A stretch of 41,713 nucleotides of DNA, taken from the IMG/VR virus record IMGVR_UViG_2778261064_000003, positions 1-41,713 of that record; one strand, written 5' to 3'. Origin of the DNA: a virus. Its lineage: Duplodnaviria; Heunggongvirae; Uroviricota; Caudoviricetes. The notes below the pieces were generated by a model, which was not told where the DNA came from, ran no database searches, and was given only the letters and a program-made list of their open reading frames with translations. The position numbers were made by a program, and so were the translations under genes. This document shows positions 1-21,720 of this stretch, one piece after another. How positions within the stretch are numbered: the stretch's first letter is position 1; each line of letters opens with the position of its first letter.

Positions 1-730
1 ATTATCTCCCGTTTCCTGGACATAAATGCCTGACAACTGACAGCCGGAAGGTGCCCGGAATGTCCATGTAATTTCAGTACCGCCGGGATTATGAAACACC
101 TCGTTGGTATACTGGAAATTACGCACAGCACCAGAATCGGTACTGCTGATGGTGATATCGCTGGTGCCATCAAACAGCACATTGTTAATCCTGCGGGCAT
201 TCTGAAGGCGGGTTGCCGTTCCGGCGTTGCCGCTGATGTTGCTGATGGTGATATCCGAAGTCAGGGGCATACCGTTGACCCTGCGGGTATTCGGTACGGC
301 ACTACTGGCTTTATTTACCGTGTCACGTAATGAAAGTGCATCAATAATTTCATCGGCTGTGGTTTTACCAAGAATGCCGCGCACAAACGCACTGAGCGGC
401 GTTAATGCCATTTCGTCTTCGCCGGTAAAATACGGGAACGTATTATTCTCACCGGTTAATCCGGCAATGGCACCGGCTGAGCCACTGTTCGTAATAAACA
501 GCTTTTTCAGCGCTGTCATAATCTGGTCGGTTGTGTTTTTATCCGGTTTGATATTTGCCTGCCGGAGAATTTCCAGCAGTTCAGACTGAATAATATTAAA
601 CCAGTCTGGTCCTGGATAAGTGGGTGGAATACCGTTCCCGCCTTCGGTGAAATAAAGCGTTGTTTTGCTTAATTCAGCCGCAACAGGCGGCATAACAGGC
701 ACACCCGTATTATTGTCCACGTGAAACATA
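1..730 (-). CDS. Tail fiber protein, N-terminal part (partial, continues past window edge)
   Basis: Open minus-strand frame starting at ATG 730..728 (MFHVDNNTGVPVMPP...) and running off position 1. It sits directly downstream of the gp48-like gene, where Mu has tail fiber S. Not in the ORF track because it is truncated. Confidence 0.6.
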
Positions 731-732
731 AA

Positions 733-1336
733 TTATTCTCCGGTGTAATAATATTCATATTCCGTACCCGCCAGCCGGTAATGCTTCAGCAGGCATTCCA
801 GCTCGCGGGTACGTTCGCTGATTAATGGCGTCATGACGTCATCAATACAGGTAAACCGCCCGGCATCGTTGTCCGGGACTTCCACTTTCAGCAGCCAGCG
901 ATACCGTGCCGGATGCAGCGGGTACATGCAGTCACGCAGGCAGTGGTGCGGCAGAACGGCCGTCACCTTAATGGTGAAGCCCAGCGCCGCCGCAGCGGCT
1001 TCAATCTGCCAGGTTGCCAGCCCGCCTTTGCGGCGGTATTTCTCCACAACGGCCCGGCGGCGGGCTTCCGTTGTGGTGGCGGGCTTCCGTTGTGGTGGCG
1101 GCAATTCCGCATTCCGGCAGCGCCAGATATTGCTCCCACTCCGGCAGCAGCTGGAGCGTGGTTTCCGGTCGCATCTCCACATGCAGGCGCGAGGCATCGT
1201 ATTCAACGCGGGTTAAACGCTCTGCCAGTGCCCTTAAAAAGCGGTTTAAATCCGCGTCGTTATCACGCGGCCATGCCTTACCCCGTGGCATGACCTGTTG
1301 CAGTGCGGTCAGCCATTCCGTCACGCTGTGAGCCAT
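733..1336 (-). pseudogene. gp48-like baseplate/tail protein (DUF2313-like position) disrupted by a 19-bp tandem duplication
   Basis: Two overlapping minus-strand ORFs (1001..1336 and 733..1206) in different frames both encode ATTTEAR around the duplication. Removing one 19-bp copy joins them into one frame of about 194 aa. Confidence 0.65.
1062..1099. repeat. Perfect 19-bp direct tandem duplication (GGGCTTCCGTTGTGGTGGC x2)
   Basis: Seen directly: 1062..1080 and 1081..1099 are identical. Confidence 0.95.
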
Positions 1337-2397
1337 GTCACCTCCCCGATGGTGATAAGCTCATCCACATCACTGGTGGTGTCTTCCCCGATGTTAAGAA
1401 AGTAATCCGTGATACCGGACGTCATACCGATGGACGTGCGCAGCGAGGACACCGGCAGCATCTGACCGGGGGCCAGCGTTTTCTGTAATGCGGTCAGGTT
1501 TGCCCGGACGGCGTTCCTGTTCGCCTGGCTGTCCGGTGTCAGACGGATGGACAGGTCGAGCTTCTTCAGCCTGACCTGCACCGGCCAGACCTCGATGCCG
1601 CCCGGTTTGCCCACCATCACGCCGGTGGCCGGGTGTTTGTGGCAGAACAGATACTGCTCCATTGTCTTCAGGTCGTCCCGTGTGGGGATAATGTCTTCAC
1701 GGTCATCATAAAGCCATGCCAGCCCGACCGTGCTGGGGCCGTGCCACGCATCCCACGCCCACGCACGGCTGACGCCCGGCACTTCACGCGCCCATATCAC
1801 GTAGTCATGCAGCGCACCACCTACCGGGGGATTACGGCGCACATACAGCAGACGGTCCAGCAGCTCTGCGATGGATTCAGTGTCTGCGCCACCGGTGATG
1901 CCACTTTCAGTCACCGCGCCTGTGCTGCCCGTTCCGGGCAACGGGGACAGCAGGGTCAGCACGGCACCGGCAGCAAGATTGCCCGCCACACCAGCTTCTT
2001 CAGCCTGCACGATGACGGTGACCTCGCCGTTCTGTACCTCGCCGGATGTGAGCACCTGATACACCTGATTCGTGTCGGACTGCATCCGGGTTTCTGCCGG
2101 AAGGGGGGACTGACTGGTGAAGGTCACCGGCCCGCTGGCAAAGGTGGCCTGCTTGCGGATAACCCCTTCATACGTTGCTGTTTTGATAATGGTTTCATCA
2201 TCAGACGTGGTGGACGGGATTATCTGGTCCTTGATCCAGCTCTGATGGTCGTATAAATCCCGGACCTGACTGCTGAATGACACGTTCAGCGCCTGCTCAA
2301 CACTGACAGGCGGCAGCTTTTGCAGACCGAGTTCATACGCAATATCTTTCTCGCCGTCGGCAATCAGCTTGCCCAGCGTGGGGATTTCATACGGCAT
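1321..2397 (-). CDS. Baseplate J-like protein (Mu gp47-like)
   Basis: 358-aa ORF in the Mu tail gene order between gp46-like and gp48-like; size fits baseplate J family. Confidence 0.7.
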   Translation of the reverse strand: MPYEIPTLGKLIADGEKDIAYELGLQKLPPVSVEQALNVSFSSQVRDLYDHQSWIKDQIIPSTTSDDETIIKTATYEGVIRKQATFASGPVTFTSQSPLPAETRMQSDTNQVYQVLTSGEVQNGEVTVIVQAEEAGVAGNLAAGAVLTLLSPLPGTGSTGAVTESGITGGADTESIAELLDRLLYVRRNPPVGGALHDYVIWAREVPGVSRAWAWDAWHGPSTVGLAWLYDDREDIIPTRDDLKTMEQYLFCHKHPATGVMVGKPGGIEVWPVQVRLKKLDLSIRLTPDSQANRNAVRANLTALQKTLAPGQMLPVSSLRTSIGMTSGITDYFLNIGEDTTSDVDELITIGEVTWLTA

Positions 2398-2839
2398 TAA
2401 TGGTGGCCTCCCATCGGCGGGTGATTTCGATTGTGAGCGTGGTTTTGTCCGGGCGGGTTAACACCACCTGAAAGGCAATACGGTCAGGGACGATGATGCT
2501 GGCCGTGACGGTGGCGTTACGGGCGTAACCGGCCCGCAGCAGCGGTTGCATGGACAGCCGCGCGTAATCCTCCACACGCAGGCGGACGTCTTCCGTCAGC
2601 TTTTCGCGCTCAAGCAGCCACAGGCGGGAACCCCACGAAAAATCGCTGTACGTGTCGCCCGGCCAGCCGCGCGGGTCGCCGGAACCATCAGGAATGACAT
2701 CATCGTCATCAGCACGGGCATCGGTGAAAAGGCAGATAAGAACCTGAGTGACCAGCCCCTCATCCAGTGAGAGGCCGTTATGGGTGACGGTGATATCACC
2801 CCGTGAGAGCATGTTATTCCAGTGGATTCCTGTCGTCAT
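2387..2839 (-). CDS. Baseplate wedge protein (Mu gp46-like)
   Basis: 150-aa ORF, position and size match Mu gp46; overlaps neighbours by a few nt (operon coupling). Confidence 0.6.
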   Translation of the reverse strand: MTTGIHWNNMLSRGDITVTHNGLSLDEGLVTQVLICLFTDARADDDDVIPDGSGDPRGWPGDTYSDFSWGSRLWLLEREKLTEDVRLRVEDYARLSMQPLLRAGYARNATVTASIIVPDRIAFQVVLTRPDKTTLTIEITRRWEATINAV

Positions 2840-3372
2840 ACGGGCGGTGATGTATTCTCATTGTCGCCGTCCTTATGAATATGATTGCTGAAAGATTTGC
2901 CGTTGATTCTGACATCTTCAGTAAACTCACAGGGACCGACGAATTTCATATTTCCTGCATTTATAGCCAGTAATTCGTCGGCAGTGATATTTACCGTTTT
3001 CCCTGAAACGTCTACCTGTTCTCCTGTAATTTCAATGATGCCGTTTTCCTTCAGGGTAATGTGTGATTTGCCGTCCCGGTGATACAGCCTGACATCGCCG
3101 GGGGACAGGCCTTTCGGGCGGCATCGCTTGTCCTCCACCGCAATGGCAACCAGCCCGTCACGCCGTCCGCCAACGGCCAGCACGATGGCTTCTGAACCTT
3201 CCGGCGGAACGGAAGTAAAACCGTAGTTCTGGAAGCGTTCCACATCGTCATCAGTGGCATCTGCCAGCGTCTGGATTTGCAGGTTCTGCCGCTCCAGACT
3301 GTCAGACACCATGCGGACAATGGCACGGTCAACCAGCAGCCGCAGACGGCGGGCAATGGCGTTTAATCCCAT
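2836..3372 (-). CDS. Baseplate assembly/spike protein (Mu gp45-like)
   Basis: 178-aa ORF downstream of the baseplate hub gene; position and size match Mu gp45. Confidence 0.6.
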   Translation of the reverse strand: MGLNAIARRLRLLVDRAIVRMVSDSLERQNLQIQTLADATDDDVERFQNYGFTSVPPEGSEAIVLAVGGRRDGLVAIAVEDKRCRPKGLSPGDVRLYHRDGKSHITLKENGIIEITGEQVDVSGKTVNITADELLAINAGNMKFVGPCEFTEDVRINGKSFSNHIHKDGDNENTSPPV

Positions 3373-4433
3373 GTTGCCACCGCCTTTGTTTTCTTCGTCT
3401 TCGCTTTCATTTCCGGCATATCCAGTGATTCAGGCGGAACCAGCGCCAGAACCGTCATCCGCCCCTGTGCACCATCCGTCCAGGTCACCCCGGATATCAG
3501 CCAGGTGGTTTTCAGGTTCTGAATGCTGTCGTCGATATCGACAAGGCGGTTGGTCTGCCACAGCGGACCGCTGTCGCCCTGTTCGCGCCAGCCTGCCACC
3601 GTGATTTCCGTCGTGCGGGCCTCTCCCAGCATCCGGGCTTTGTACCATTCCCCGCGAATGCTGGCACCGCCCACGGTCAGACTGTCTTCATTGACCAGAA
3701 TGCGCGGGCGGTAACGGTTAATTTCCGGGTCTTCGGTGATGTACTGGCGACCGCCCACCATCGTGGCAGGCTGGCTGTCCCACAGTTTGCCACCGGCACT
3801 GGTGGTGCCCTTGATGATGTACTGACTGTTACGCTCCCGCCAGCTGAAGCGCCCACGGGCGGCGAGGATATTTTTTCCCAGCACCAGTGACACGCCCGCG
3901 CGAACGGAAGAAGCGCGGGTGATAATCAGATTACCTGCGCCGTCAGACGTCAGCAGAACACCGCGCTGTTTTGCCAGCCGGTCGAGCAGTTCAAAACCCG
4001 TTTCACCCTGTTCCAGAACAACGGACGCAAACGCCTCCCCGGTCGGGGTTTCCGTGATGACGGTTATTCCGAACGGGCGGCAGACATCCGCCGCCACCTG
4101 TTCAAGCCGCACGCCTTTCCATTTCCCGGACGAATGCACCACAGAGCAGTCCACCAGGTCGCCGGTTTTGTCGCGCCCCATGACACGAATTTCCACATTG
4201 TCCGCGTCATAGCTGGGAATAAAATCATCGATATACCCCGTCAGCACGGTATCCGCACCCAGCCTGACCGTACAGGGTTGCCCCTCACGAATCACGCGCG
4301 GTGCCGCCGCTGACCAGCGTGTTGTCACACTGAGATCAAACTCACCGGCAATCGCCTTCAGGGAACGGCTGACGGACATTTCCGTCCAGCCTTCCCACAG
4401 TTTGCCGTCAACGGTAAGAATCACGGATCCCAT
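3363..4433 (-). CDS. Baseplate hub / tail protein (Mu P, gp44-like)
   Basis: 356-aa ORF following the N-like gene in Mu order. Confidence 0.6.
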   Translation of the reverse strand: MGSVILTVDGKLWEGWTEMSVSRSLKAIAGEFDLSVTTRWSAAAPRVIREGQPCTVRLGADTVLTGYIDDFIPSYDADNVEIRVMGRDKTGDLVDCSVVHSSGKWKGVRLEQVAADVCRPFGITVITETPTGEAFASVVLEQGETGFELLDRLAKQRGVLLTSDGAGNLIITRASSVRAGVSLVLGKNILAARGRFSWRERNSQYIIKGTTSAGGKLWDSQPATMVGGRQYITEDPEINRYRPRILVNEDSLTVGGASIRGEWYKARMLGEARTTEITVAGWREQGDSGPLWQTNRLVDIDDSIQNLKTTWLISGVTWTDGAQGRMTVLALVPPESLDMPEMKAKTKKTKAVATWD

Positions 4434-5707
4434 CAGTCGGTAATCTCCACAGGTTGCGTCGGCAGAATGAATGACGGATGGCGCAGGCGGTTACGCTGCA
4501 CGATTTCATCCCGTCGGCTTGTATCCCCATGCTCGCGCCATGCCAGCAATGCGGCAGATGTGGTTGTGGTCAGCGTCACCTGCCGGGTTTCCGGCAGACG
4601 GGCGGCACGCTCGCGGGCATCCGTAATCACGGCCTGCCGTAAATCGCGCAGCGTTCGCCACAATGCCCGCTGGTTATTTTCCACCGCTGCCACCGCCTGC
4701 TCATGCAGTTCAGCCGCCAGCGCGTCACCGGCAGATAATGCCGCATCACTGGTATCGAACGTCATCGAGGCCACGGCATTTGCCTGTCCCAGCAGGGTTT
4801 CCAGCACAACCACCTGGCGGAAGTCGTCAATGTTCTTCTGCAGGCTGTCAGATACCGGCTGATAATCCGGTGACAGCCCGATAGCAAAGCCAGGTTCGCC
4901 GTCTGCCACGCTGCCTGGCTTCACGGTGATATCTTCCGGCAGTGCGCCGGTGGCAACCTGTCGGGCGCGTTCTCCGGCCCACTGGTTGCGTAATGTCGTG
5001 TAAACCGCCAGTGCTTCGGGTGGTTCCGTCACCAGAACAACCACGCCGTCGATGAACGAGGACAACTCACTGACCAGACGTCCCGGCGTGGCAATAATGG
5101 TTCCGGCCATCTCCTTAAAATGGTTCAGCCTGTCCATCCACTGATTCAGTGCTGCCGGTAACGTGGGCAGGTTAGCCACAAGGTTTTCCATATCGGCCAG
5201 AAAGCTGTCGGCCATATCACCCAGCCCGTCAGGTACACTGAACCAGTCGCCAGCATCAATGGCCGCTTTTACCGCATCAATGCCTGTCAGCACCTCCTGC
5301 TGCGTGTTATCCGCCGCAGACGGGAACAGGCGCTCGCCTGCCTCAAACACTTCAAAGGTGACATATGCAATGCCATCTTCCTCCGTGCTGAGGCGATGGG
5401 TGACCTTGCCAACCTGTACGGTCTGTATCCCGAACCACGGGTGGATAAGCTCGCCGGGGCCGGGGGTATTGAGCGCGTCTAAAAGGGCGTTTAAATCATC
5501 CTGGAAGTTTTTACCTGGCAGCTTTGCGTTAATCTGCTGTTGCCCCGGAACGGCCCCGTTATCATCCGTCCAGGCGGTTTCGCGCCGGGGATACGCGCGG
5601 GGAATGGCACGACGGCCACCGGTGCCTTCCGTATCCACCAGAAAGAAGGGGACGCCGCGAAACGAGGCATCGCGCAGCCCGTCCCATTTGCCTTTGCTCG
5701 TTGTCAT
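4433..5707 (-). CDS. DNA circularization protein N-like tail protein (Mu gp43-like)
   Basis: 424-aa ORF immediately downstream of the tape measure gene, as in Mu. Confidence 0.6.
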   Translation of the reverse strand: MTTSKGKWDGLRDASFRGVPFFLVDTEGTGGRRAIPRAYPRRETAWTDDNGAVPGQQQINAKLPGKNFQDDLNALLDALNTPGPGELIHPWFGIQTVQVGKVTHRLSTEEDGIAYVTFEVFEAGERLFPSAADNTQQEVLTGIDAVKAAIDAGDWFSVPDGLGDMADSFLADMENLVANLPTLPAALNQWMDRLNHFKEMAGTIIATPGRLVSELSSFIDGVVVLVTEPPEALAVYTTLRNQWAGERARQVATGALPEDITVKPGSVADGEPGFAIGLSPDYQPVSDSLQKNIDDFRQVVVLETLLGQANAVASMTFDTSDAALSAGDALAAELHEQAVAAVENNQRALWRTLRDLRQAVITDARERAARLPETRQVTLTTTTSAALLAWREHGDTSRRDEIVQRNRLRHPSFILPTQPVEITD

Positions 5708-7572
5708 TACCCTTGCTCCACGCTGGTGACGCCAGCCTGCGCACTGAGTCTGACGCCGGGTTGATCCACTCTGACACTTTTCACGCGGGCATCACCTTCC
5801 ACCACCACACGGATTTCCCCCTGCAATTGCTGCGAAAGGAAAGGATAATTCTGTGTGGGTTGCATACCTGCCCACGGTCGCGGGTCAGCAATGTTCTTGT
5901 CACCCAGCGAGTTGAACCAGTCCGTTACCTTACGCCAGACGGACTCGAGCGCTTTCTGGTTGTCCTGACCTTGTTGCGCGAACTCACGTTCCCACTGGCT
6001 GGCGCTGGCATCACCGGCAACGGATTTAGTGAGACTGTCAACCTCACCCGGCAGGGCGTATTGTGTGGTCAGAAAATCGTAAAACTCCAGAGCACCGGCA
6101 ATGATGCCAGCGCCTTTACCTGCCTTTCCTCCACGGTTACCCGGCCCCCGAGGATTGCGGGGATTGCGCGATGAATCCGGTGTATCCGGCAGACCGCCGG
6201 TATTACCATTCATCCCGCCACTGCCCATATTGACCACATAAACCGGCATCACGCCGGAGCCGAAAACATCCGTAATGCCGCCGGGTATTCCTTTGCCTTT
6301 CCCTTTGGGATTCATGATGTCGTGGAGGGTTTTACCTAACTGGTACGTTTTTCTGATGGCGATAATGCCGCCCACAGCAATCGCCATATATTTACCGACC
6401 TGCAACCAGTTCTGGACGGTGTTCTGGTCCACGCTGTTGATGGCATCAGCCAGGTCCTGAACGGGTTTTGCCAGTTGATGGTGGGAGAATTTTTTCCAGC
6501 TGGTTTCCAGCGCCTGCATGGCCGACGTAAAATCCTGTGCAGCATATGCGGCATCCTTCATGATGCCTTTTCCATCACCTGTAACCTTCATATAACGTTG
6601 CAGGTTTTCTGCGCCTTTGCCTGAGGTTACCGCTTTGATTAACATTGTTGCATCATCAAGAAACCCGGCTTCATCCAGCCGTTGGGATTGTATTTCTGTA
6701 CCTTTACTTCCGGAGCGTGCGGCAATCTCCTGAAGAAGAAGGGGCAATGAACGCATATTTCCTTCGTTATCGAATACGTTAATGCCATTGTGTTTAAGAA
6801 CCTTTACGGTTCCTGTTTTTTGCAAATCTTTTATAAGGTTTTCTACTACTGTAGCCGCAGTATCCCGATCTCCGGTTGCATCAATCGCAGATTCAAGCAC
6901 AACCCCAACATCCCTGACACCCTGCACACCACGTCCGCCCGCAGCGGAATACAGCGACATCGCACGGGTTGCTTTTTCTGCGATGTCTTTCAGTTCATAG
7001 GCACCTTCTTTTCCCAGCAGGTTCAGGGTATCCATTGCCTTTAAGGCATCGTTTTCATCCTTAATCCCGAACTTCGTAAACTGAGAAAACAGCGAGCCGA
7101 TGGCTTCCCCTGAACTTCCGGAAGCGGCGATGGATGCCGCCATCATCTCCTTGTTTTTGAAACCAAAATTAATCTCACCCGTCACGGTGCCAACTTTTTC
7201 CACCGCGCTTATCAGTTCACTGTCATCAACCTTAAATTTGATGGCGGCGTCCTGAATACCATTCAGCATCTGTGCCATTTCTTCGCGCGTCTTTTCTGCG
7301 GAAATACCAATACGGGTCATCCGGCGATCCACCTGCGCAAACTCACGCATCATGGCGCTACCCGCAAAACCGGCAATCATCGCCGTGTAGCGGTTACCCA
7401 GCACATCGAGGCCACGTGTGGCAGATTCCGTAGTGGCTTTAACAAGGCTCATTGCCTTCTGATGATTACGCGCGAACTGCGACATATTTGCGCCGTACTG
7501 CCGGGCTTTGGCGGTCAGGTTCCCGGCAAGGTTGATCATGATTTCCGTACTGAGACGGTTACCTGTTGCCAT
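5707..7572 (-). CDS. Tail tape measure protein
   Basis: 621-aa ORF, Gly-rich and helical, located between tail chaperone and baseplate genes. Confidence 0.8.
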   Translation of the reverse strand: MATGNRLSTEIMINLAGNLTAKARQYGANMSQFARNHQKAMSLVKATTESATRGLDVLGNRYTAMIAGFAGSAMMREFAQVDRRMTRIGISAEKTREEMAQMLNGIQDAAIKFKVDDSELISAVEKVGTVTGEINFGFKNKEMMAASIAASGSSGEAIGSLFSQFTKFGIKDENDALKAMDTLNLLGKEGAYELKDIAEKATRAMSLYSAAGGRGVQGVRDVGVVLESAIDATGDRDTAATVVENLIKDLQKTGTVKVLKHNGINVFDNEGNMRSLPLLLQEIAARSGSKGTEIQSQRLDEAGFLDDATMLIKAVTSGKGAENLQRYMKVTGDGKGIMKDAAYAAQDFTSAMQALETSWKKFSHHQLAKPVQDLADAINSVDQNTVQNWLQVGKYMAIAVGGIIAIRKTYQLGKTLHDIMNPKGKGKGIPGGITDVFGSGVMPVYVVNMGSGGMNGNTGGLPDTPDSSRNPRNPRGPGNRGGKAGKGAGIIAGALEFYDFLTTQYALPGEVDSLTKSVAGDASASQWEREFAQQGQDNQKALESVWRKVTDWFNSLGDKNIADPRPWAGMQPTQNYPFLSQQLQGEIRVVVEGDARVKSVRVDQPGVRLSAQAGVTSVEQG

Positions 7573-7768
7573 GCTGTTTCTCCAGTTGCTTTATCAGGCG
7601 GAACAACTGCCGCAGGGGCAGTTGTTCCAGGTACTGAACGCTGAATCTCTGGGACAGGTTAACCAGCAGGTTCATCAGTGCCGCTGCCAGCGGCATCAGT
7701 TCGCCCCCGCGTTGCCACCTCCTCAAGCATTTCATCCAGCGCCGCCGCTTTCGTGCTGATAAGCTCAA
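7559..7768 (-). other. Alternative-frame ORF overlapping the 3' end of the chaperone gene and ending 14 nt inside the tape measure gene; candidate frameshift extension
   Basis: Open frame of 69 codons with helical, Leu-rich sequence (LMNLLVNLSQRF...) in the +1/-2 frame relative to the chaperone. It fills the 86-bp gap between chaperone stop and tape measure start. Confidence 0.35.
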
Positions 7769-8054
7769 GGTCTGCCGGGTGGAGCATTCGCAGCTGTTTC
7801 ATGTCCAGCGGACCGGGGATATTGCCGATTGACGCAACCTGACGGCGCATCATTTCCAGTCCCATCAGCACTTCAGAACAGTAGGCCACCGCCTTTCCGT
7901 TCCCGCCCATGACGACGCGTTCTGCGGCCAGTTGTGCATCAATCACGTCACTGGCGGTCAGTTCGCGCAGCTTCACGGTTTTATGCAGGGTTTCATCTGC
8001 CGTGCCTTTGCCGGTCAGAAGCCCGTGTTTCAGTTCAAATGTCATTTCAGCCAT
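7659..8054 (-). CDS. Tail assembly chaperone (Mu gp41-like)
   Basis: 131-aa ORF between tail tube and tape measure genes, the conserved chaperone position. Confidence 0.6.
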   Translation of the reverse strand: MAEMTFELKHGLLTGKGTADETLHKTVKLRELTASDVIDAQLAAERVVMGGNGKAVAYCSEVLMGLEMMRRQVASIGNIPGPLDMKQLRMLHPADLELISTKAAALDEMLEEVATRGRTDAAGSGTDEPAG

Positions 8055-8055
8055 G

Positions 8056-8412
8056 TCACACCTTCACGCATTTTTCACCGATAAAGTTGGCACTGATGGT
8101 GCCGGAATCCTCGTCCAGCTCCGCCGGGTTATCCGTGGCTGAACCTGTCATCATGTAGTTCAGGCCGTTGTCGCCGTAGAACATCACCGTGACGTCTTCC
8201 CAGCTGCTGATTTCAATCACGTCCATATCCGCTGCCGCCGCAATGGTCACTTTGATGGACGGCGAGGCCATCTTGCTGGAGATGCCCCAGACCTTGCCGC
8301 CGCCCATATGCTGGGTGCGGCTGAAGCCGCCCGGATTCAGTATGGATTTCCCCTCGGTTTTAATTTCGCGGCCATTCACGCGAATGGTCGCCATGCCAAG
8401 AATTTTTGCCAT
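8056..8412 (-). CDS. Tail tube protein (Mu M-like)
   Basis: 118-aa ORF directly downstream of the sheath gene. Confidence 0.7.
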   Translation of the reverse strand: MAKILGMATIRVNGREIKTEGKSILNPGGFSRTQHMGGGKVWGISSKMASPSIKVTIAAAADMDVIEISSWEDVTVMFYGDNGLNYMMTGSATDNPAELDEDSGTISANFIGEKCVKV

Positions 8413-8421
8413 GTGGTCCCC

Positions 8422-9897
8422 TTAAACTCTGAACTGAATCAGGCCTGCCAGCACACGCAGCTGGTTCACCAGATTCGGGTGGCAGATAAAGTTCAGGCGG
8501 TTTTTATCGCTGCTGTCGCGTGTCACCTGAAGCGTGTCCCTGTAATCGCTGAAGTTCTCCACAAGGCCTGCCGGGATAAGTTCGGTCTGGCAGATATCCA
8601 GCAGCTCTGCGGTGCACAGCTTCGGCGTCATCACCGGCTGCCCCGCATCCAGCGAGTCCAGCACGTCATCATCCGCCAGCTTGTGGCGCGGATAACGGTT
8701 CGAGAAACGGTTTTTGATGATGTAACGGATACGGCCCAGCGTGGCGGGCGACTGCACATCAAGGTACGACACATCCGCATCACCGTACTGATTAACCCGG
8801 TACATGGTGATTTCACGCTCTATGCAGACGTTATCCCCGGCGTCCACCATGTGCGTGGCAATGCCGTCATGCAGCAGCAGGTTACGTTCCGGCATATCCC
8901 AGCGAACATTACGCGCAGGCGGCAGAATGCCGGTCAGGACCAGCGTCTGAAGCGGACGCGCCGGGTCAATGGCAAGGTGATACGCTGCCGTTGCGCCGTA
9001 TGACGCGGCCCACATCCACGCCGGGTGCGGTGACAGGTTGGTGCCAATACAGCTAATCAGCCAGTCATTGCGGGTTTCACCAAACGTGCCTGTCTCGCCG
9101 TGCGTGCCACGAAACGCCGTCCATAGCTGCGCTTCCATCATCCTGAGCGGCCCCCAGCGGTTCAGCAGTTCATCACGCAGGGTGTTCAGGCTTTGCGTGT
9201 CGGTGAACGGGGCGATGATATCGGTAAACCACTCCGGGCCGATGGCCGCAACGGCGTCTGCCATTTCCGGTGTCCCGGTGCCGCCGGTAAACGCGGTTGC
9301 GGTCACCTTCACACCTGCCGGGAAGGCTTCACCGGTGTAGTAGTTCAGGCGAACGTCGGCACCGTTGCCGGTGACGCCGTGCCAGTTCACGGTCAGCTCC
9401 ACGGTATCCGTGGCATCATCCTTCACCGCAGCGGCCACCTGCGTGGCAGGCTTTTTCGTCACCGCATCAGCAATGGCTTTTGCAATGTTTTCTTTGGTAT
9501 CCCCGGCGCTCACGCCCACCTGAACGGAGACACCGTTAATCAGCAGAGCCACCGTTCCGGCCTCTGTTGCTGTCCCCAGCACGGTCAGCGTGGCTTTTGC
9601 GGCAGCGCCAACAGGTGCGGCAACCGGCATTGCCCAGGTTTCCGTGTACGTGTTGGCACGACGCAGTATTTTGAGCATTTCAGCCAGCATCGACCCTTTG
9701 CCATAAAGCTGCTCTGCCTGGCTGTCACTGGTGATGCGGGTCAGTGACAGGGCGTCTGCGCTGCCGGACGATACCGCATGGCCCATGACCAGAATTTTTC
9801 GGCTTTGCGCGGATGCACTGTCCAGCGCCTGTGAATTGTCAATATCGATCACGACGAGCGGGACGCGGATATCATCAGGAATTGAACCCAGCGACAT
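8422..9897 (-). CDS. Contractile tail sheath protein (Mu L-like)
   Basis: 491-aa ORF, size and position typical of myovirus sheath upstream of tube. Confidence 0.8.
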   Translation of the reverse strand: MSLGSIPDDIRVPLVVIDIDNSQALDSASAQSRKILVMGHAVSSGSADALSLTRITSDSQAEQLYGKGSMLAEMLKILRRANTYTETWAMPVAAPVGAAAKATLTVLGTATEAGTVALLINGVSVQVGVSAGDTKENIAKAIADAVTKKPATQVAAAVKDDATDTVELTVNWHGVTGNGADVRLNYYTGEAFPAGVKVTATAFTGGTGTPEMADAVAAIGPEWFTDIIAPFTDTQSLNTLRDELLNRWGPLRMMEAQLWTAFRGTHGETGTFGETRNDWLISCIGTNLSPHPAWMWAASYGATAAYHLAIDPARPLQTLVLTGILPPARNVRWDMPERNLLLHDGIATHMVDAGDNVCIEREITMYRVNQYGDADVSYLDVQSPATLGRIRYIIKNRFSNRYPRHKLADDDVLDSLDAGQPVMTPKLCTAELLDICQTELIPAGLVENFSDYRDTLQVTRDSSDKNRLNFICHPNLVNQLRVLAGLIQFRV

Positions 9898-10097
9898 TAT
9901 TTTTTCCCTCTGGTTTTGTTGCTATTTTTCGGAAGCGCGGTTATTTCCACATCTCCCTCGGCTTCACGGCGCAGCCAGTAAGCGCAGACGTCGAGACGTT
10001 CCCCTTCCGGGGATAAATGCGCGCCATCCGGTTTACGGACACGGACGTTTTCCCGCGCTGGCTTAATCAGTTTCTGTTCCATCGTCACCCCGTACAT
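9897..10097 (-). CDS. Hypothetical small protein
   Basis: 66-aa ORF filling the gap between gp38-like and sheath genes; no recognisable motif. Confidence 0.3.
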   Translation of the reverse strand: MYGVTMEQKLIKPARENVRVRKPDGAHLSPEGERLDVCAYWLRREAEGDVEITALPKNSNKTRGKK

Positions 10098-10674
10098 GGA
10101 TCACGTCGTTAATTTCAGTGTGTTCACCGCAGCGCAGCGTTGCCCCGAGGCGCAGGAAGTCCGGGAGCGCGGCGAGATCAATCTCTTCATCCAGCCGGAA
10201 TTCCTGCTCCCACGTCACCGCCCACATGGTGACACCCAGCCCGTCGAGGCTGGCGGAGTAAATGTTGTCTGCCCGCACATCAGCAGCCAGGCGTTCAGCC
10301 CCCATGCCTGCTGTGGCATCCGACGACAGCAGGCGTTTGATCACCTTTCCGGCCAGCACTTCACAGCGCACGTCGCGGGAATACCCCCACGAATCCGTTG
10401 CCATGATGTAAGCCACCCAGGTAACCAGACCGGACAGCCCACCGCGCGGGTTGATATCCCGGACACGCAGGGCAGCTACCCGGATACAGCCGGTGCGACC
10501 GGACAGATAGCGCTTCACTTCTTCCGGGCTGTTGAACTGGCCGATGTGACGCTCCACCACGTCGGCCCGGTCAGGGGTTTTCCCCTGAAGTGCTGTTTTC
10601 AGCCAGGCCACAATGCGCTCTGCGGCCGCAACGGTGCTCCCCGGTGTGCGCAGTTCAGGGCGTTGTTCTGTCAT
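10063..10674 (-). CDS. Mu gp38-like virion protein (function unknown)
   Basis: 203-aa ORF in the Mu head-tail joining block. Confidence 0.55.
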   Translation of the reverse strand: MTEQRPELRTPGSTVAAAERIVAWLKTALQGKTPDRADVVERHIGQFNSPEEVKRYLSGRTGCIRVAALRVRDINPRGGLSGLVTWVAYIMATDSWGYSRDVRCEVLAGKVIKRLLSSDATAGMGAERLAADVRADNIYSASLDGLGVTMWAVTWEQEFRLDEEIDLAALPDFLRLGATLRCGEHTEINDVIHVRGDDGTETD

Positions 10675-11216
10675 GGCAGAACCTCCTTCCAGAAATGACT
10701 GATAACCTGTTGCAGCTCCTGCTGGTTGGCAGAAGACAGCCCCAGAAATTCACGTTGTGGAATGTTCATCATGCGGTTATGTGCGCCGACGGTCTGCCAG
10801 ACCGGATATTTCAGCGCCCGCCCGAAACACTGCGAGATAAGCCGTTTGTGGGCGCTGACCGGCACACTGCCGGAAAAGCCGTCATTCATGATGCGGGCAT
10901 AATCCAGCGGTGAACCGATACGCACCACGCGGTTTTCCACGATGTACTGGATACTCTCCAGCAGATGGCCTTCACCACGCAGCAGACTCTGGTTGCCGTG
11001 GCGGGTCTTTTTGTACCCGTCAGACCAGTCCGGCCAGCGTTGTCCGCCCGGACTGCTTTTCTCATCGATGATGCGGCGGCGGGTCTGTGATTCCACCACC
11101 GCACCAATGCTCTCCAGCAGCTCTGCCTGCAATGAACCATCTGCCAGCTTTTCAACGGCACGGCGGATATCCTCCAGCCGCTGGTCACCGCTGATCTGTA
11201 CAGAAATCCCCATCAC
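10671..11216 (-). CDS. Phage virion morphogenesis protein (Mu G family-like)
   Basis: 181-aa ORF whose sequence pattern I recognise as the phage virion morphogenesis family. Confidence 0.55.
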   Translation of the reverse strand: MMGISVQISGDQRLEDIRRAVEKLADGSLQAELLESIGAVVESQTRRRIIDEKSSPGGQRWPDWSDGYKKTRHGNQSLLRGEGHLLESIQYIVENRVVRIGSPLDYARIMNDGFSGSVPVSAHKRLISQCFGRALKYPVWQTVGAHNRMMNIPQREFLGLSSANQQELQQVISHFWKEVLP

Positions 11217-11650
11217 AGCACCCCTTTCAGGTTGTTACGGGTGAACAGCCGGGCATTGGCACCCACCACAATGATTTTCCCGTGGTCGGTTTCTGCCGGG
11301 GTGGCATACGTCGGCAGGCCCAGATCACGGGTGCCGTTCGCCATCTCACGCAGGGTTTTAATGGCGTCGTCGTAGCGTTTCTGGATCAGCTCAGTGATTT
11401 GATTGTCACGCTCTGACAACCAGTAAAACGCCAGCGATACCGCCACGCGTTGCAGCGGGCGCGGGATTTCCGTCACTCCCAGCGGCAGCTGGTAGAGGCG
11501 GGACAGAAACGAATCAATTTCCGCTTCGGCATCACTGATGGCCTGACGGATTTTGTCTTCATCCAGCCCGTTGGTTTCCCGGTTAATCGCCATGTTCCAG
11601 ACAAGATTGCCGTCCGCGCGTAACAGGTCTTCCTGCGTGATGTACCCCAT
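11213..11650 (-). CDS. Mu gp36-like head-tail protein (DUF1320-like)
   Basis: 145-aa ORF in the Mu head-tail joining block, translationally coupled to neighbours. Confidence 0.55.
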   Translation of the reverse strand: MGYITQEDLLRADGNLVWNMAINRETNGLDEDKIRQAISDAEAEIDSFLSRLYQLPLGVTEIPRPLQRVAVSLAFYWLSERDNQITELIQKRYDDAIKTLREMANGTRDLGLPTYATPAETDHGKIIVVGANARLFTRNNLKGVL

Positions 11651-11961
11651 CAGCCTTTCTCCGCTTCCCGGACAATCAGATTCGGCTCTGCCATCAGGCG
11701 GGTGGCAACCGCAGCGGTCACCGCCACATCCTCACCGGCATGTGACCAGAAACGGCCACAGCGCCAGAACCCGTTTTCAGACACGGCCCGGACGTTCAGC
11801 CGGACAGGGGCGTCACCCTGTACAGCAACCGGGTCTTCAGCCGGACGTGGTTCATTCGCCTGACCGTCAGCCATAATAACGTCTGCCAGCGGTGCCGGGT
11901 TTTCCTGTGCAGCGCTGTTCTTTGCGGCTTTCGCGCCTTTGGTTCCTGCTTTTTCACTCAT
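11650..11961 (-). CDS. Hypothetical protein (Mu gp35 position)
   Basis: 103-aa Ala/Pro-rich ORF downstream of the major head gene. Confidence 0.5.
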   Translation of the reverse strand: MSEKAGTKGAKAAKNSAAQENPAPLADVIMADGQANEPRPAEDPVAVQGDAPVRLNVRAVSENGFWRCGRFWSHAGEDVAVTAAVATRLMAEPNLIVREAEKG

Positions 11962-11965
11962 GACT

Positions 11966-11983
11966 CTGCCTTTTAAAAGGCAG
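11966..11983 (-). promoter_or_regulatory. Perfect 18-bp palindrome CTGCCTTTTAAAAGGCAG between major head gene and next gene
   Basis: Seen directly in the 81-bp intergenic region after the major capsid gene. Confidence 0.3.
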
Positions 11984-12042
11984 TTAAAAGGGCATTCACA
12001 GCGCCTTTTAACTGCGGGTTACAACAGATTACGGATGACGGG

Positions 12043-12945
12043 TTATGCCGGGGTGGTGATGTACGGGCTGTCCACGATGTCCACATCCTTGTACCAGATG
12101 TTGGAATCGCCGCCGTTAACCAGCATGGCGTCAATGATGCGCTTCGCGTCCGCGCGGTTTCTCGGCCCCACCACAAGGGTGGTCGGGCGGATGCCCAGCG
12201 GTTCACCGTTGGTGGTCTTCATACCCAGCAGCAGATTGCTGGCCTTCTCGTAGTTCTCCGCTGTCAGTGCCGCACGGGAACCGACGGCGGTCTGCCAGAA
12301 GCCGAAGCCCGCATTGCAGCGACCGTCCACCCCGTAAAGGAACTCGTTATTCTTGAAGGTGTGCTCGCTGTTCAGATCATCCAGGGCTTCAAACTTAAAG
12401 GCGCGTCGCGTCTGCCAGATGATGGGTTTCAGTACCTGAGAATCATCAATCAGGAACCACGGTTCCCCCTGGTCTGATGCCGGGGTGCCGACAACGTTGC
12501 TGTATGTGCCGTCGCCCAGCGGGTGGTCTTCATCAAAGAAGTTCTGACCGTCAAAACACAGGGTGTTAAACCCGGCACACAGCAGGGGGTAACACAGCTT
12601 GTCCGGGAACTCCGACGTCTGGCGGCCATAGCGTTCAGCGATAATGCTGTACTGACCAATCTGTTCGTCTTCAATGTGTTCGCGTTTAACGCGGATCGAA
12701 CTTTCCCAGGTTTTGTTCGCAAGGGTGTAACCATAACCGTCCAGCGTTGCCATCTGACGGGCGCTGACCCATTCCTTAATCTCCGGTAAATCTTTCATCC
12801 AGCCGTAGGTATTGGAGGCGGACGAACTCGGGATTTCAGAGGCGATGCGCTGCCACTGTGGGGTGACACCACTCAGCCCACGGGTATAAGCGGCGCTCAG
12901 ACAGGTGGTCAGCGCGTGAAGGACTTCGGAAGTGACTGCTCCCAT
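12043..12945 (-). CDS. Major head subunit (Mu T-like)
   Basis: 300-aa ORF directly downstream of protease/scaffold gene, as in Mu. Confidence 0.75.
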   Translation of the reverse strand: MGAVTSEVLHALTTCLSAAYTRGLSGVTPQWQRIASEIPSSSASNTYGWMKDLPEIKEWVSARQMATLDGYGYTLANKTWESSIRVKREHIEDEQIGQYSIIAERYGRQTSEFPDKLCYPLLCAGFNTLCFDGQNFFDEDHPLGDGTYSNVVGTPASDQGEPWFLIDDSQVLKPIIWQTRRAFKFEALDDLNSEHTFKNNEFLYGVDGRCNAGFGFWQTAVGSRAALTAENYEKASNLLLGMKTTNGEPLGIRPTTLVVGPRNRADAKRIIDAMLVNGGDSNIWYKDVDIVDSPYITTPA

Positions 12946-13907
12946 CAGTTATTCTCCTGTTTAGGTTTAGCGGCGAGGAACTCTTCCCCGGTAATACCCA
13001 TGCTGCGGCACATCGCCAGTTCGGCGTCGGTCAGTGTCTGCGCGGGTTTATCCTTGCCCTGGCTGGGCTTGTCGTTGTTCACCAGCGGCTGTGCACCTCT
13101 GGTGTACTCCGCAAACTGTTTGCGGCCTTCTTCCGTACGGCAGGTGGCAAGGAACATGTCACGGTTTGCCGGGGCCACTTTTCCGGCCTCAATGGCCGCA
13201 TCCACAAGCGCTTCTGCTTCCTGCTCTGCCAGTTGCTGAAGGCGTTTTTCTGCGGTTTCGGCACGGTTCAGTGCCAGATTGTGGGTTTCCACCGGCACAA
13301 ACTTCGTCAGATCAGGTGTCTGTGCGCGGTTCAGCGCCACCTGTTCGTTCTCCTGAAGTTGTTTAATGGCGGCCACGGTATCGTCCACCGTGGCAGATTC
13401 AGCCAGCCCAAGCAGGCCGGTGATTTGCACAGGTACTGTCATCGGGTTTTTCTCCGTATTCAGTGCAGGAAAATCCAGGTTAGGTTTGTTGGTCAGCCCG
13501 ACGCTGGACAGGCGCGTCACCACACCGTCTGCGTCAAAGAAAAACGCCGGGCTGTAATAGCGGTAGCGGCGCTCGCTCAGCATCCAGCGGGCGGACTCGC
13601 TCCAGACAACACGCCCTTCAATGGTGCCGCTGTCCGTCACGCGCAGTTCTTCCACCCAGCCATACGCCGGGGCTTCATCACCGCGTTGCCCTTTAATTTC
13701 GGTGGCGTGTTCAATGTCCACCGGAATTTTGATGTCGGACGAACGGGTGACCACCTCATGCGGATTGTGGTTAATCCACGTCCGGCCATCGCGCCCGGTG
13801 AACTCACCCGCAGGGACGAGTTCGAGCCATTCCGGCAGTTGAGCCGGTGTCAGCTCAGGGATGGGTTCTGGCAGGGAAAAACACAGCGCCAGCAGTTCCG
13901 GTTGCAT
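12945..13907 (-). CDS. Head maturation protease/scaffold (Mu I-like)
   Basis: 320-aa ORF between F-like and major head genes; coiled-coil rich C-terminal half. Confidence 0.7.
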   Translation of the reverse strand: MQPELLALCFSLPEPIPELTPAQLPEWLELVPAGEFTGRDGRTWINHNPHEVVTRSSDIKIPVDIEHATEIKGQRGDEAPAYGWVEELRVTDSGTIEGRVVWSESARWMLSERRYRYYSPAFFFDADGVVTRLSSVGLTNKPNLDFPALNTEKNPMTVPVQITGLLGLAESATVDDTVAAIKQLQENEQVALNRAQTPDLTKFVPVETHNLALNRAETAEKRLQQLAEQEAEALVDAAIEAGKVAPANRDMFLATCRTEEGRKQFAEYTRGAQPLVNNDKPSQGKDKPAQTLTDAELAMCRSMGITGEEFLAAKPKQENN

Positions 13908-13956
13908 GTCAGTCTCCGTCGTTTGGGATTACCGCCGGTCAGTATGCGGAAGGCAG

Positions 13957-13980
13957 AAAAAAAGCCGGATTTACCGGCTT
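13957..13980 (-). terminator. Rho-independent terminator-like hairpin (minus-strand AAGCCGG-TAAAT-CCGGCTT followed by T7)
   Basis: Seen directly; located downstream of F-like gene and upstream of protease gene; identical copy at 21691..21714. Confidence 0.6.
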
Positions 13981-14120
13981 CACTGAAAACGGGGAAATAC
14001 CCCCTTCAAAACCCCTTCAAAAACGCCACAGCATCTTCAAAAACGTCAGAATGCACATTCACGCCATCAGAATAAAAAACGCGTTTCTGATGCGTTTCAG
14101 GGGGATTTACGGCGGGAGGG

Positions 14121-14885
14121 TTACTCACTGTCAAAACGGGCCTGTTTTGTCGCCAGCTGGCGCGCCAGCGCCTGCTCACGGTTTATGCCGGGATTGTAGT
14201 TCCAGCCCGGATCAATCCCTTCCGGCACATCTTCCTCTTCGCCCGTGCGTTTGTTCACCCAACGGACGGTCCGGATTTCCGGCGCTTCGGTGTGAATGGT
14301 GCCCTGTGCCGCCAGTTGCGCATATTCACCACGGCTGACCTGACGGGTGGTGCATTTGCAGCCCCAGCCATTAGGGGCGAAATGTGTCAGCCAGAACGGA
14401 TGATCAACCGGCAGACACAGACGCGCCCATTTCACATGCTCCGCCCGGTGCTCGCGGGATGGTCCCAGCTCGTAAATCAGATACGGCATGGCCCGCTTTG
14501 TCCGTTGGATGCGTTCCCACTGGCCCGCCGCGCGGGCGGTGCGCATGTTGGTGTCAAAAATCGTGCGGAGGCGGCGGTCACTGCCCAGCTGTACGGTGCG
14601 CCTTTCGCCTGTCAGCGGATCATCCATCTCCTGTACGCCCCACCATCTGCGTTTTATCAGCAGCGGTTGCAGCGCCTCCCGGAACTCGCTGAACGTCTGC
14701 CCGCTTTGCAGGGCGTCTTCCACAAGGGCTTTCACATCCGACAACAAATCCAGTTGCAGCATTTTTGCCACGGTGAAGCTGTTCCGGTGTTCTTCCCGCC
14801 ACACATCCCGGTAATCAAAACCGGGGCGCAGCTTCTTCGCCTTCAGCCACGCCAGCGCCTCTTTCGGGATGAGGGTTTCACGCAT
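14121..14885 (-). CDS. Head morphogenesis protein (Mu F, gp30-like)
   Basis: ORF downstream of portal; start set at MRETLIPKE (ATG 14885), which overlaps the portal stop. Confidence 0.6.
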   Translation of the reverse strand: MRETLIPKEALAWLKAKKLRPGFDYRDVWREEHRNSFTVAKMLQLDLLSDVKALVEDALQSGQTFSEFREALQPLLIKRRWWGVQEMDDPLTGERRTVQLGSDRRLRTIFDTNMRTARAAGQWERIQRTKRAMPYLIYELGPSREHRAEHVKWARLCLPVDHPFWLTHFAPNGWGCKCTTRQVSRGEYAQLAAQGTIHTEAPEIRTVRWVNKRTGEEEDVPEGIDPGWNYNPGINREQALARQLATKQARFDSE

Positions 14886-16449
14886 GACCGGTGTCCCCCA
14901 GCGCACGGGCCTTAAAGCACACCTCCGCCAGTTGCAGGGCAAAGTCGTCCGCGTTCAGCGTTTCCTGAAGCTCAGGCAGGCGTTTCAGAAAGTCATCAAA
15001 ACTGTCGCATTCCTGCGCCAGTGTCAGCACCGGGTTCGTGAACGCCTCGCCGGTTTTCTGCCAGTCACGCAGGGCATCATCCACCATCTGTGCCAGTTCG
15101 TCGGGGTGTTCCCGGTTCAGGGCGACGCGCTCGCGGTTCATCGCCATTTCACCTGACATTCCGGCAGAAACCGGATGCAGAATATCGGCCCCTTCATCCG
15201 GCTCAGCAAGACCGAACCGGTCCCGCAGCTCCGATTCCTGAACCCGCATCCCCCGGTCAATCAGCGGCACCAGAGCGTCTGTCAGCGCCTTCAGATCTTC
15301 CGCTTCACTGATACGCAGAACAACACGGGGATAGTGCGCCTGTGGCCCGTAGTTGGCCTCAATGTAGGGACGCACCAGATATTCATTCAGCGTGTTAGCC
15401 AGCTGCCGCGCGTCCCAGCGCACAATGTCCATGCGCACCTGATTGTGCACGTCCGCCTGTGAACGCGAACTGCCGTTATCCGTGGTCATGGTCTGCCCCA
15501 GTACGGCTTTACTGATTTGCGCATCACACCATTCCGCCATTTCACGGAACAGCGCGCCGCCGTTATTCCGGCTGGCGTTTTCCTGCATCTCCAGTTGCAT
15601 GGACTGCGGAATGGCACACCCGGCATCCGAGGCAATGGAGGCAATCGCATCAATCAGCACGCGGATTTGCTCCTCCGTGGCATTGGGGCCGTATTTCCCC
15701 ACCGTGACCGGAATACCGAATTTTTCCGCAAATGCCCACCAGTCGCGCACGGTATAGGATTTCAGCATGTACATTACCGCCACCAGACGGGCCAGACCGT
15801 TACGCAGCGGCAGACCGGATTTCAGGCGCGGCTGGTGAACAATGAATTTTCCCGGTGTCAGCGGTACGCCATCCACCGGCTCATCGTCCGTCAGCAGGCG
15901 GAACTGGCGCAGCGTGGGTTTTTCGGCTTTCAGAAAACGGGGATCAACCCACTCATAATCACGGGGCACCCAGTGGTTATTGCGGGTGTTCCACAGAATT
16001 TCACAGACCGCCACGCCTTTCCCCAGCCCGTCAAGCAGATCAAACATCAGCTCGGGGATTTGCGGCGCGGCCATCAGCTCACGGATGGCATCCGCCAGCT
16101 GCACATCGGCATCGTCGTCACTGGCGGCCACCACCACCGGTTCAATACCCGCCACCGTCAGCTTGCGGGTGCGCAGTACCGAGGCGTAATGCAAATCGCG
16201 TTCTTCCATCTCTTCGGCAAGGATAAAAAAATCACGCGTGATGCCGTCGGCGGCATTGCGCAGAATGCCTGCCAGCCTGCCGGGATTCAGCCCGGAAGCA
16301 ATGCTGATGCCCGGCGAGGCCGAGCGCACGCCAGCCTGATGCGGACGGGCCTGTATTTCATCGAGCGTCTCTTTTTTCAGCGTGTCTTCCTCACCGGTTG
16401 CCGGGTTCAGCAGACGGCGAACGGCCCCGGCCAGTTGTTTCAGGTTCAC
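14878..16449 (-). CDS. Portal protein (Mu gp29-like, DUF935 family)
   Basis: 523-aa ORF directly downstream of terminase large subunit. Confidence 0.8.
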   Translation of the reverse strand: MNLKQLAGAVRRLLNPATGEEDTLKKETLDEIQARPHQAGVRSASPGISIASGLNPGRLAGILRNAADGITRDFFILAEEMEERDLHYASVLRTRKLTVAGIEPVVVAASDDDADVQLADAIRELMAAPQIPELMFDLLDGLGKGVAVCEILWNTRNNHWVPRDYEWVDPRFLKAEKPTLRQFRLLTDDEPVDGVPLTPGKFIVHQPRLKSGLPLRNGLARLVAVMYMLKSYTVRDWWAFAEKFGIPVTVGKYGPNATEEQIRVLIDAIASIASDAGCAIPQSMQLEMQENASRNNGGALFREMAEWCDAQISKAVLGQTMTTDNGSSRSQADVHNQVRMDIVRWDARQLANTLNEYLVRPYIEANYGPQAHYPRVVLRISEAEDLKALTDALVPLIDRGMRVQESELRDRFGLAEPDEGADILHPVSAGMSGEMAMNRERVALNREHPDELAQMVDDALRDWQKTGEAFTNPVLTLAQECDSFDDFLKRLPELQETLNADDFALQLAEVCFKARALGDTGHA

Positions 16450-18580: not shown

Positions 18581-18696
18581 TACGCTGTAAACTTTCGTAT
18601 GCAGATTTCAGTGCGCCGTTCTGGATTTCCCGCCATGTCAGGTTGTGCGCCAGACGGCGGAGTTCATCACGGGACGCTTTACTTATCGGATTCTTT

Positions 18697-18996
18697 TTAC
18701 GGTTCACGACGGCCCCCATCTTCAGTTCCCGGTGTTTTCAGACCGGCGTATATTTCTTCGCGAACGGAGCGGATATCCTTACCCAGCAGCTTCCACAGCC
18801 GCGCACATGCCGGTGATGACCGAAGTAAGCGTTTCATGGGGGTATCCGGTGCATCCGGGTTCCAGGGCTTTCCGGTCTGTTGTTCGTATGCACGGGCAAT
18901 AGCGTTTTGTTCGATATCCGCCAGCACAAGACAGTGCGCAAGCCGCCATATAACGGCACGTTCTCCGCGGCTTAACGGCTTCAGTTTTCGGGTCAT
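18697..18996 (-). CDS. Hypothetical protein
   Basis: 99-aa ORF tightly spaced after the upstream gene. Confidence 0.45.
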   Translation of the reverse strand: MTRKLKPLSRGERAVIWRLAHCLVLADIEQNAIARAYEQQTGKPWNPDAPDTPMKRLLRSSPACARLWKLLGKDIRSVREEIYAGLKTPGTEDGGRREP

Positions 18997-18998
18997 GC

Positions 18999-21038: not shown

Positions 21039-21039
21039 A

Positions 21040-21636: not shown

Positions 21637-21640
21637 AAAA

Positions 21641-21681: not shown

Positions 21682-21690
21682 CGGAGGCAT

Positions 21691-21714: not shown

Positions 21715-21720
21715 CATTGA

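Follow-up and report, generated by a model that had tools for sequence, protein, structure and literature searches.

A probable Mu-type −2 ribosomal frameshift in the tail assembly chaperone gene of a Mu-like Escherichia prophage

The tail assembly chaperone gene of the viral record IMGVR_UViG_2778261064_000003 (IMG/VR; Caudoviricetes), a stretch of 41,713 nucleotides (nt) referred to here as the window, lies on the minus strand at 7659..8054 and encodes a homologue of phage Mu gp41 with a zero-frame product of 131 amino acids (aa). With a probability of roughly 0.88, the locus undergoes a Mu-type programmed −2 ribosomal frameshift that lengthens the chaperone, and its host element is a Mu-like transposable prophage of Escherichia. 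The original prediction for this DNA had proposed a recoding extension of the chaperone into the +1/−2 frame, a proposal that gains support from membership of the gene in the Gp41_Mu family, from a slip site identical to that of Mu and from the conservation of site and extension among relatives. The mechanism has been known for Mu since 2004 (Xu, Hendrix & Duda); the window holds an orthologous, unannotated instance of it, not a new recoding event.

Under the proposed mechanism, the majority of ribosomes would read 8054..7659 and release the 131-aa chaperone. In a few percent, when tRNA-Gly sits on GGG 7706..7704 in the P site and CGA 7703..7701, presumed to be poorly decoded, is next in the A site, the peptidyl-tRNA would slide back two bases, re-pairing perfectly with GGG 7708..7706, and decoding would restart at GGC 7705..7703 and continue for 48 codons to TAA 7561..7559, just within the tape measure gene. 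This would give a fusion of 165 aa, join(8054..7704, 7705..7559), comprised of chaperone residues 1-117 and a 48-aa C-terminal extension, with the junction ...VATRG|GELMPL..., a predicted mass of ~18.5 kDa and a predicted tryptic junction peptide GGELMPLAAALMNLLVNLSQR.

The slip site, the chaperone and phage Mu

The slip site, CGG_GGG_CGA (7701..7709, minus strand), lies near the 3' end of the chaperone gene and is read in the zero frame as Arg116 (7709..7707), Gly117 (7706..7704) and Arg118 (7703..7701). It fits the pattern [C/A]GG_GGG_CGA, and its zero-frame phase is shared by 149 related loci. In its immediate context the window reads ACG CGG GGG CGA ACU (7712..7698) and Mu reads GAA CGG GGG CGA GUG, the nonamer and the codon phase being identical. 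A run of five G (G5) on the coding strand, to which the original prediction had drawn attention in the overlap of the two frames, is indeed present at 7708..7704 (plus-strand C5, 7704..7708) and sits inside the nonamer.

The details of the Mu slip site used here were drawn from a GenBank note, Swiss-Prot and reviews. In GenBank AF083977 a joined coding sequence, Mu_56, stands beside Mu_41 with the note 'verified -2 translational frameshift in PMID 15469818; tail assembly chaperone frameshift product'. In the −2 model, tRNA-Gly leaves the zero-frame GGG for the GGG two bases before it, and translation continues from GGC. For Mu the model yields a protein of 188 aa (...QERG|GEWLR...), identical to UIW09302.1 and to Swiss-Prot P0DJY4, 'Probable tail assembly protein FS-gp41'. 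No record of the Mu +1 product (187 aa) was found in the protein collection queried. Mu is the classic natural case of −2 frameshifting (PMC5009743, PMC3498833) and was for years the sole one, with an efficiency of about 2.2% (PMC3498833); in a reconstituted system the Mu site gave 14% (2025 preprint). A +1/−2 extension, called non-canonical when first predicted for the window, is unusual in tailed phages generally but is the documented norm for Mu (PMC5009743, PMC3498833). A literature search for the octamer GGGGGCGA contained in the site returned irrelevant matches only, e.g. a ribosome-binding site in a Burkholderia phage table.

Homology of the chaperone itself is evident from several profile matches. 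It covers positions 1-107 of the 107 in Pfam Gp41_Mu (PF23746, E=1.2e-37), matches phrog_508 'tail assembly chaperone' (E=3.8e-40) and also matches Pfam Phage_TAC_7 (PF10109, E=1e-7). As a tblastn query it recovered Mu at 50.5% identity over residues 5-100, and an identical sequence is listed by NCBI as 'phage tail assembly protein [unclassified Escherichia]'. The gene lies between those for the tail tube and the tape measure protein, in the order tube, chaperone, tape measure, within a contractile-tail module. The tail tube gene (8056..8412, minus strand; Pfam Tail_tube PF10618, E=5e-37) is directly 5' of the chaperone gene, and the tape measure gene (5707..7572, minus strand, ATG 7572..7570) encodes 621 aa matching Pfam PhageMin_Tail (E=8e-17) and phrog_973 'tail length tape measure protein' (E=2e-121).

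Set beside Mu gp41 and FS-gp41, the window locus shares the Pfam family, the gene order, the nonamer with its phase, and a homologous +1/−2 extension of ~50 aa that starts with G-E, carries an LPL-R/S-x-L motif and ends at the start of the tape measure gene. The two differ in several respects: chaperone identity is only 43%, the distance from the site to the zero-frame stop is 50 nt in the window and 29 nt in Mu, and the stop of the extension overlaps the tape measure gene by 14 nt in the window, whereas it lies 14 nt upstream in Mu. A Shine-Dalgarno-like (SD-like) element, GAGGAGGU, lies 10 nt upstream in the window, and extension codon 4 is an in-frame ATG; Mu has neither. Finally, the Mu shift is on record as verified, whereas the fusion of the window is unannotated and is predicted here from sequence.

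Conservation of the site and the extension

Among 43 loci, comprised of 35 from IMG/VR together with Mu, Klebsiella phage Kp4866-3, Shewanella MuM16-2, Vibrio martha 12B12, Vibrio 1.028.O, Pasteurella Pmp9, Alteromonadaceae B23 and a Mu-like insert in an Stx2c phage, GGGGGCGA occurs in the same phase in all 43, followed by an extension of 47-52 aa whose end falls between −44 and +14 nt relative to the start of the tape measure gene. It is the sole invariant nucleotide block across the 38 distinct sequences of the set, and the codons flanking it are free to vary. A wider, alignment-seeded search added 116 loci, including 36 named genomes from Raoultella, Klebsiella, Pluralibacter, Aeromonas, Vibrio, Enterovibrio, Photobacterium, Plesiomonas, Shewanella, Marinomonas, Marinobacter, Pasteurella, Canicola and [Haemophilus] felis; in-phase GGGGGCGA with an extension of 45-55 aa is found in 106 of them. 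The in-phase octamer spans Escherichia to Pasteurellaceae, with chaperone identity down to about 41-50%. Throughout both locus sets the extension measures 45-55 aa and ends at −44..+14 nt of the tape measure start, with one outlier at +138 nt. A slip site conserved among relatives, the search for which had been suggested with the original prediction, is present, and the extension frame, whose lack of conservation in related phages had been named as grounds for abandoning the idea, is kept along with the site in nearly all relatives. With blastn against phage records a single match was obtained, and the relatives were revealed by protein-level search; a scan of genome contigs with a single protein query gave no match, and an alignment-based scan succeeded.

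The exceptions (10/116) include truncated, disrupted or off-frame copies (L052, L054, L055 and L157). Variants with a run of only four G (G4) are found in Xenorhabdus (L072, L074), where the sequence is GAG GGG CGA UAG with a zero-frame stop right after CGA, and in Sodalis (L079) and Candidatus (Ca.) Pantoea persica (L080), where it is GCG/UCG GGG CGA. The extension frame is open and conserved in these variants. In Erwinia tracheiphila (L081; ...ERG-EWLQ...) and Marinomonas rhodophyticola (L070; ...QRG-DLAG...) the chaperone and the extension are fused in one frame, with a junction that holds one G fewer than the −2 product would; they may be genuine constitutive fusions or may stem from errors in assembling a homopolymer. 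An Enterobacteriaceae metagenome-assembled genome (L078) has in-phase GGGGGCGA but a G7 run, not G5.

The +1/−2 frame of the window, by three-frame translation from the chaperone ATG, is open from stop to stop for 79 codons (7559..7798, minus strand). Counted from its first TTG (7768) it has 69 codons (7559..7768, minus strand), and its TAA lies at 7561..7559, 14 nt into the tape measure gene; translation thus confirms the extent and end point first given for it. Closure of the −1 frame by a stop was likewise correctly predicted: the stop falls ~5 codons past the G run, and only 25 codons of that frame are open around the chaperone stop. Post-shift translation would be limited to the last 48 codons of the +1/−2 frame, from GGC 7705..7703 to AGG 7564..7562, which with the TAA occupy 7559..7705 (minus strand) and encode GELMPLAAALMNLLVNLSQRFSVQYLEQLPLRQLFRLIKQLEKQHGNR. 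By length alone the open frame is not beyond chance. In the window, with 54.6% GC, open +1 runs of at least 79 codons hold 13% of +1-frame codons inside genes, and the +1 frame is open across the stop in 5 of 30 genes. GGGGGCGA itself occurs once in the window when both strands are considered, about the chance expectation for an 8-mer. Since the open frame on its own is statistically unremarkable, the case rests on conservation of the site and the extension and on a coding signature.

The coding signature was sought in the 28 codons past the chaperone stop, where the extension is the only frame that could be coding. Comparison of the window with five relatives gave ratios of nonsynonymous to synonymous change (pN/pS) of 0.16-0.44 for the extension frame. 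For the other two frames the values were 0.86-3.3 in four diverged comparisons; in the closest pair one frame gave 0.29 and the other was undefined. The extension frame is under purifying selection beyond the chaperone stop. The 48-aa extension alone matches phrog_38797 (58 aa, function unassigned in PHROGs) with E=1e-34, so the same small open reading frame (ORF) recurs in phage genomes. Twenty distinct extension peptides align, with the pattern G-[D/E]-hydrophobic ... LP[L/I]R-x-L. Between profiles of the window-clade and Mu-clade extensions, hhalign gave a probability of 74.8% (E=2.6e-5) over 34 collinear columns, a moderate and not overwhelming match. Four of the 24 lineage representatives (Mu, Shewanella MuM16-2, Vibrio 1.028.O and Marinomonas) lack any ATG, GTG or TTG in the extension frame upstream of codon 12, and in several lineages the frame opens just 3-4 codons before the slip site. 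Because of these two features, the extension in those lineages is reachable only by frameshifting.

Stimulators, direction of the shift and other explanations

A candidate 5' stimulator is the SD-like GAGGAGGU (7717..7724, minus strand), 10 nt upstream of the P-site GGG codon. Its predicted duplex with the anti-SD has an energy of −12.3 kcal/mol, a gene-wide rank of 0.003, and GGAG(G)-like elements at 7-12 nt spacing are found in most related lineages, though not in the Mu clade. When amino acids were held fixed and synonymous codons resampled, the excess of SD-like sequence gave P=0.21 for the window and a median of P=0.22 per lineage; the combined P=0.005 is taken over lineages that are non-independent. 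The signal is graded weak since the strong gene-wide rank shrinks once the amino-acid sequence is controlled, and a stimulatory role for GAGGAGGU is offered as a hypothesis only. An internal SD-like element ~10 nt 5' of the shift site is known from E. coli dnaX (PMC5009743), and GAGGAGGU has a similar spacing; unlike the window, dnaX shifts by −1 and also has a 3' stem-loop, and the element of the window is a candidate with a weak excess over amino-acid expectation. It is conceivable, though on balance unlikely, that SD-like elements in the window and in most non-Mu members pair with 16S rRNA in elongation and act as the 5' stimulator of a natural −2 shift. If such pairing does occur, these phages might shift far more efficiently than the ~2% of Mu. 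In the clade of the window G5 might also serve as a Shine-Dalgarno sequence from which translation starts internally at ATG 7696..7694, and the two readings are compatible.

A local 7-bp hairpin, UGCCGCU-GGC-AGCGGCA (7679..7695, minus strand), begins 5 nt past CGA. It was rejected as a family-wide feature, being confined to the enterobacterial clade and overlapping conserved MPLAAAL codons.

Several points weigh against a −2 frameshift in the window. Expression of the fusion by this prophage is put forward by homology with Mu. The −2 and +1 shifts arrive in the same frame and cannot be separated from sequence. The G4 variants do not allow perfect −2 re-pairing. A dual-coding constraint could account for part of the invariance of GGGGGCGA, which encodes R-G-R in frame 0 and G-G-D/E in the extension frame. 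The ATG at 7696..7694, which is extension codon 4 and lies 7 nt after G5, could permit independent initiation in the clade of the window. With respect to downstream RNA structure, the fold of 93 nt was no better than that of shuffled sequences (z=−0.06), and RNAalifold detected no structure shared by the 10 diverse sequences given to it.

The most durable of the other explanations, although still an improbable one, is a +1 shift at the same site. Skipping of C 7703 would give a product of 164 aa with the junction ...ATRG|ELMPL... and the predicted tryptic peptide GELMPLAAALMNLLVNLSQR. A slow CGA in the A site is the classic context for +1 slippage in the P site, the G4 sites of Xenorhabdus, Sodalis and Ca. 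Pantoea would fit such a shift, and the in-frame fusions of Erwinia and Marinomonas display a +1-type junction, RG-E/D. For Mu, however, the shift is recorded as a verified −2 event (AF083977), and it is the −2 protein that has been deposited. Among the G5 lineages the codon ahead of GGG (CGG, AGG or GGG) ends in GG in every case, which is needed for a −2 shift only, an argument that is partly circular since G5 was searched for. A +1 shift would moreover require tRNA-Gly to re-pair on GGC. The Mu record and this GG ending speak for a −2 direction in the window, and a part for CGA is assumed by analogy with Mu.

Less probable again is a separate small gene translated without any frameshift, in which G5 would serve as the Shine-Dalgarno sequence for ATG 7696..7694 and a 45-aa peptide (MPLAAALMNLL...) would result. 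An ATG or GTG at extension codon 4, 7 nt past the G run, is found in 13 of the 24 lineage representatives, and elsewhere the extension is treated as an ORF of its own (D108 gp42, 48 aa; phrog_38797). Yet Mu, Shewanella MuM16-2, Vibrio 1.028.O and Marinomonas conserve the extension with no start codon in its frame, and in other lineages the start-codon position is K, L or A. A start codon and ribosome-binding site of its own are therefore not conserved for the extension across the 24 representatives. Internal initiation cannot be the conserved mechanism, because four of these lineages have no start codon and in several the frame opens only 3-4 codons before the site. A small gene would also fail to explain why CGA is invariant and why the G run keeps a fixed phase with respect to frame 0; Mu makes the fusion according to its GenBank note, and genomes with the two frames fused exist.

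Slippage of RNA polymerase on G5, with one G lost or two gained, would yield a minority mRNA with the frames fused, and must be considered a very remote prospect. The site is a homopolymer, and the proteins could not be told apart from those of a +1 or −2 ribosomal shift. It counts against slippage on G5 that in bacteria longer runs, typically of 9 or more A/T, are needed for transcriptional slippage to be productive. Nor would slippage account for the invariant CGA after the run or for the 14% obtained with the Mu site when translation was reconstituted (2025 preprint). A chance, unexpressed open frame, suggested by how common long +1 runs are in the window, is effectively refuted by the conservation of site, phase, extension length and end point across genera and by purifying selection in the extension frame, together with the phrog_38797 match and homology to the verified Mu case.

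Prophage context, other systems and annotation

The tail module of the window is of the contractile type and is comprised of homologues, recognised through Pfam, of the sheath (9897..8422, minus strand), the tube, the tape measure protein, a DNA-circularisation protein (gpN N-terminus) and the gpP/gp44 baseplate hub. A prophage of E. coli 06-00048 is collinear with 148..28707 of the window at 96% identity, and its genes include those for Mu transposase, a MuB-like ATPase, Gam, Mor and Com; in the window the Mu transposase is a 695-aa ORF at 29278..27191. In this E. coli 06-00048 prophage (L045), the closest annotated relative, the gene for the major head subunit gpT (16931..17866) is a 'frameshifted' pseudogene in RefSeq.

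Lambdoid lysis and head genes adjoin the Mu-like prophage at 30400..41338 (minus strand), with a junction near 30300..30460. They encode lysozyme, Nu1, gpA terminase, a lambda-type portal, the S49 protease gpC, capsid gpE, FI, FII and gpZ. The next ORF after the lambdoid head genes (30754..30401, 117 aa) extends into the Mu-like end. This adjacency and the course of that ORF suggest that the tail-gene region of a lambdoid prophage received the Mu-like element by transposition. A similar 'inserted Bacteriophage Mu-like phage' is mentioned in two records of Stx phages, LC727881 and LC727895. Just beyond a repressor-like gene (29607..30242), AG[T/C]AGTATCAAAT is found three times on the plus strand, at 30301..30313, 30343..30355 and 30447..30459; 0.44 matches are expected by chance, and three were reached in 3 of 100 shuffles. 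These copies may be sites at which the transposase binds the left end of the Mu-like element. Klebsiella sp. WOUb02 carries five copies of the chaperone locus (L049-L052, L055), distributed over the chromosome and three records labelled plasmids. Two of the five are degraded, L052 having an altered 3' end at the end of a contig and L055 being disrupted in frame. The five copies are consistent with an actively transposing Mu-like element.

Likeness to other recoding systems is of several kinds. As in lambda gpG/gpGT, two products with a shared N-terminus would be made from a pair of genes that directly precedes the tape measure gene; the lambda products are made at a fixed low ratio of 30:1 and neither is found in virions (PMC5009743). 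By analogy, the short and long forms of the window would share the chaperone domain that binds the tape measure protein, the rare long form would bring an added domain for recruitment of the tail tube or initiator, needed to start tube polymerisation, and a fixed low ratio of long to short form would be a requirement of tail assembly. Neither form would be expected in the virion, judging from the Mu experiment and the lambda G/GT paradigm (PMC5009743). Lambda differs in using a −1 tandem slip on a heptamer, whereas in the window the −1 frame is closed and the shift would be −2 (or +1) on G5; an X_XXY_YYZ heptamer with a −1 frame open to the tape measure gene is not found. The lambda tail is also non-contractile, and the comparison is one of logic and position, with no sequence similarity claimed. 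The window locus is a functional analogue of lambda G/GT, not a member of that group, and the likeness drawn in the original prediction holds as analogy. Phage P2 makes E and E+E' by a −1 shift, unlike the window. The two nevertheless share a contractile-tail chaperone and a two-product arrangement upstream of the tape measure gene, and the family to which P2 E belongs (Phage_TAC_7, 'E, or 41 or 14') is the PF10109 matched by the window chaperone. A natural and efficient −2 ribosomal frameshift is also known for nsp2TF of the arterivirus PRRSV (PMC5009743), but that shift takes place on eukaryotic ribosomes at another slip sequence, needs a trans-acting viral protein and is unrelated to tail assembly.

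The 165-aa fusion sequence is absent from the collection of ~15 billion proteins queried, and a PDB sequence search and NCBIfam likewise gave no entry for it. In RefSeq/PGAP, two related E. coli prophages inspected (L039, L045) carry only the short 'phage tail assembly protein' and no equivalent of the fusion. Elsewhere the extension is annotated as a separate hypothetical protein of 48 aa (D108 gp42), or stands as the 58-aa phrog_38797 of unassigned function.

The scientific weight of the finding is small and its practical value is in annotation. A rule by which a Gp41_Mu gene with in-phase GGGGGCGA is joined at −2 would correctly annotate about 150 of the loci surveyed, in at least 12 gammaproteobacterial genera. 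The natural variants of the site, i.e. G4, G7, in-frame fusions and the presence or absence of the SD-like element, may help to find out what favours −2 over +1 slippage.

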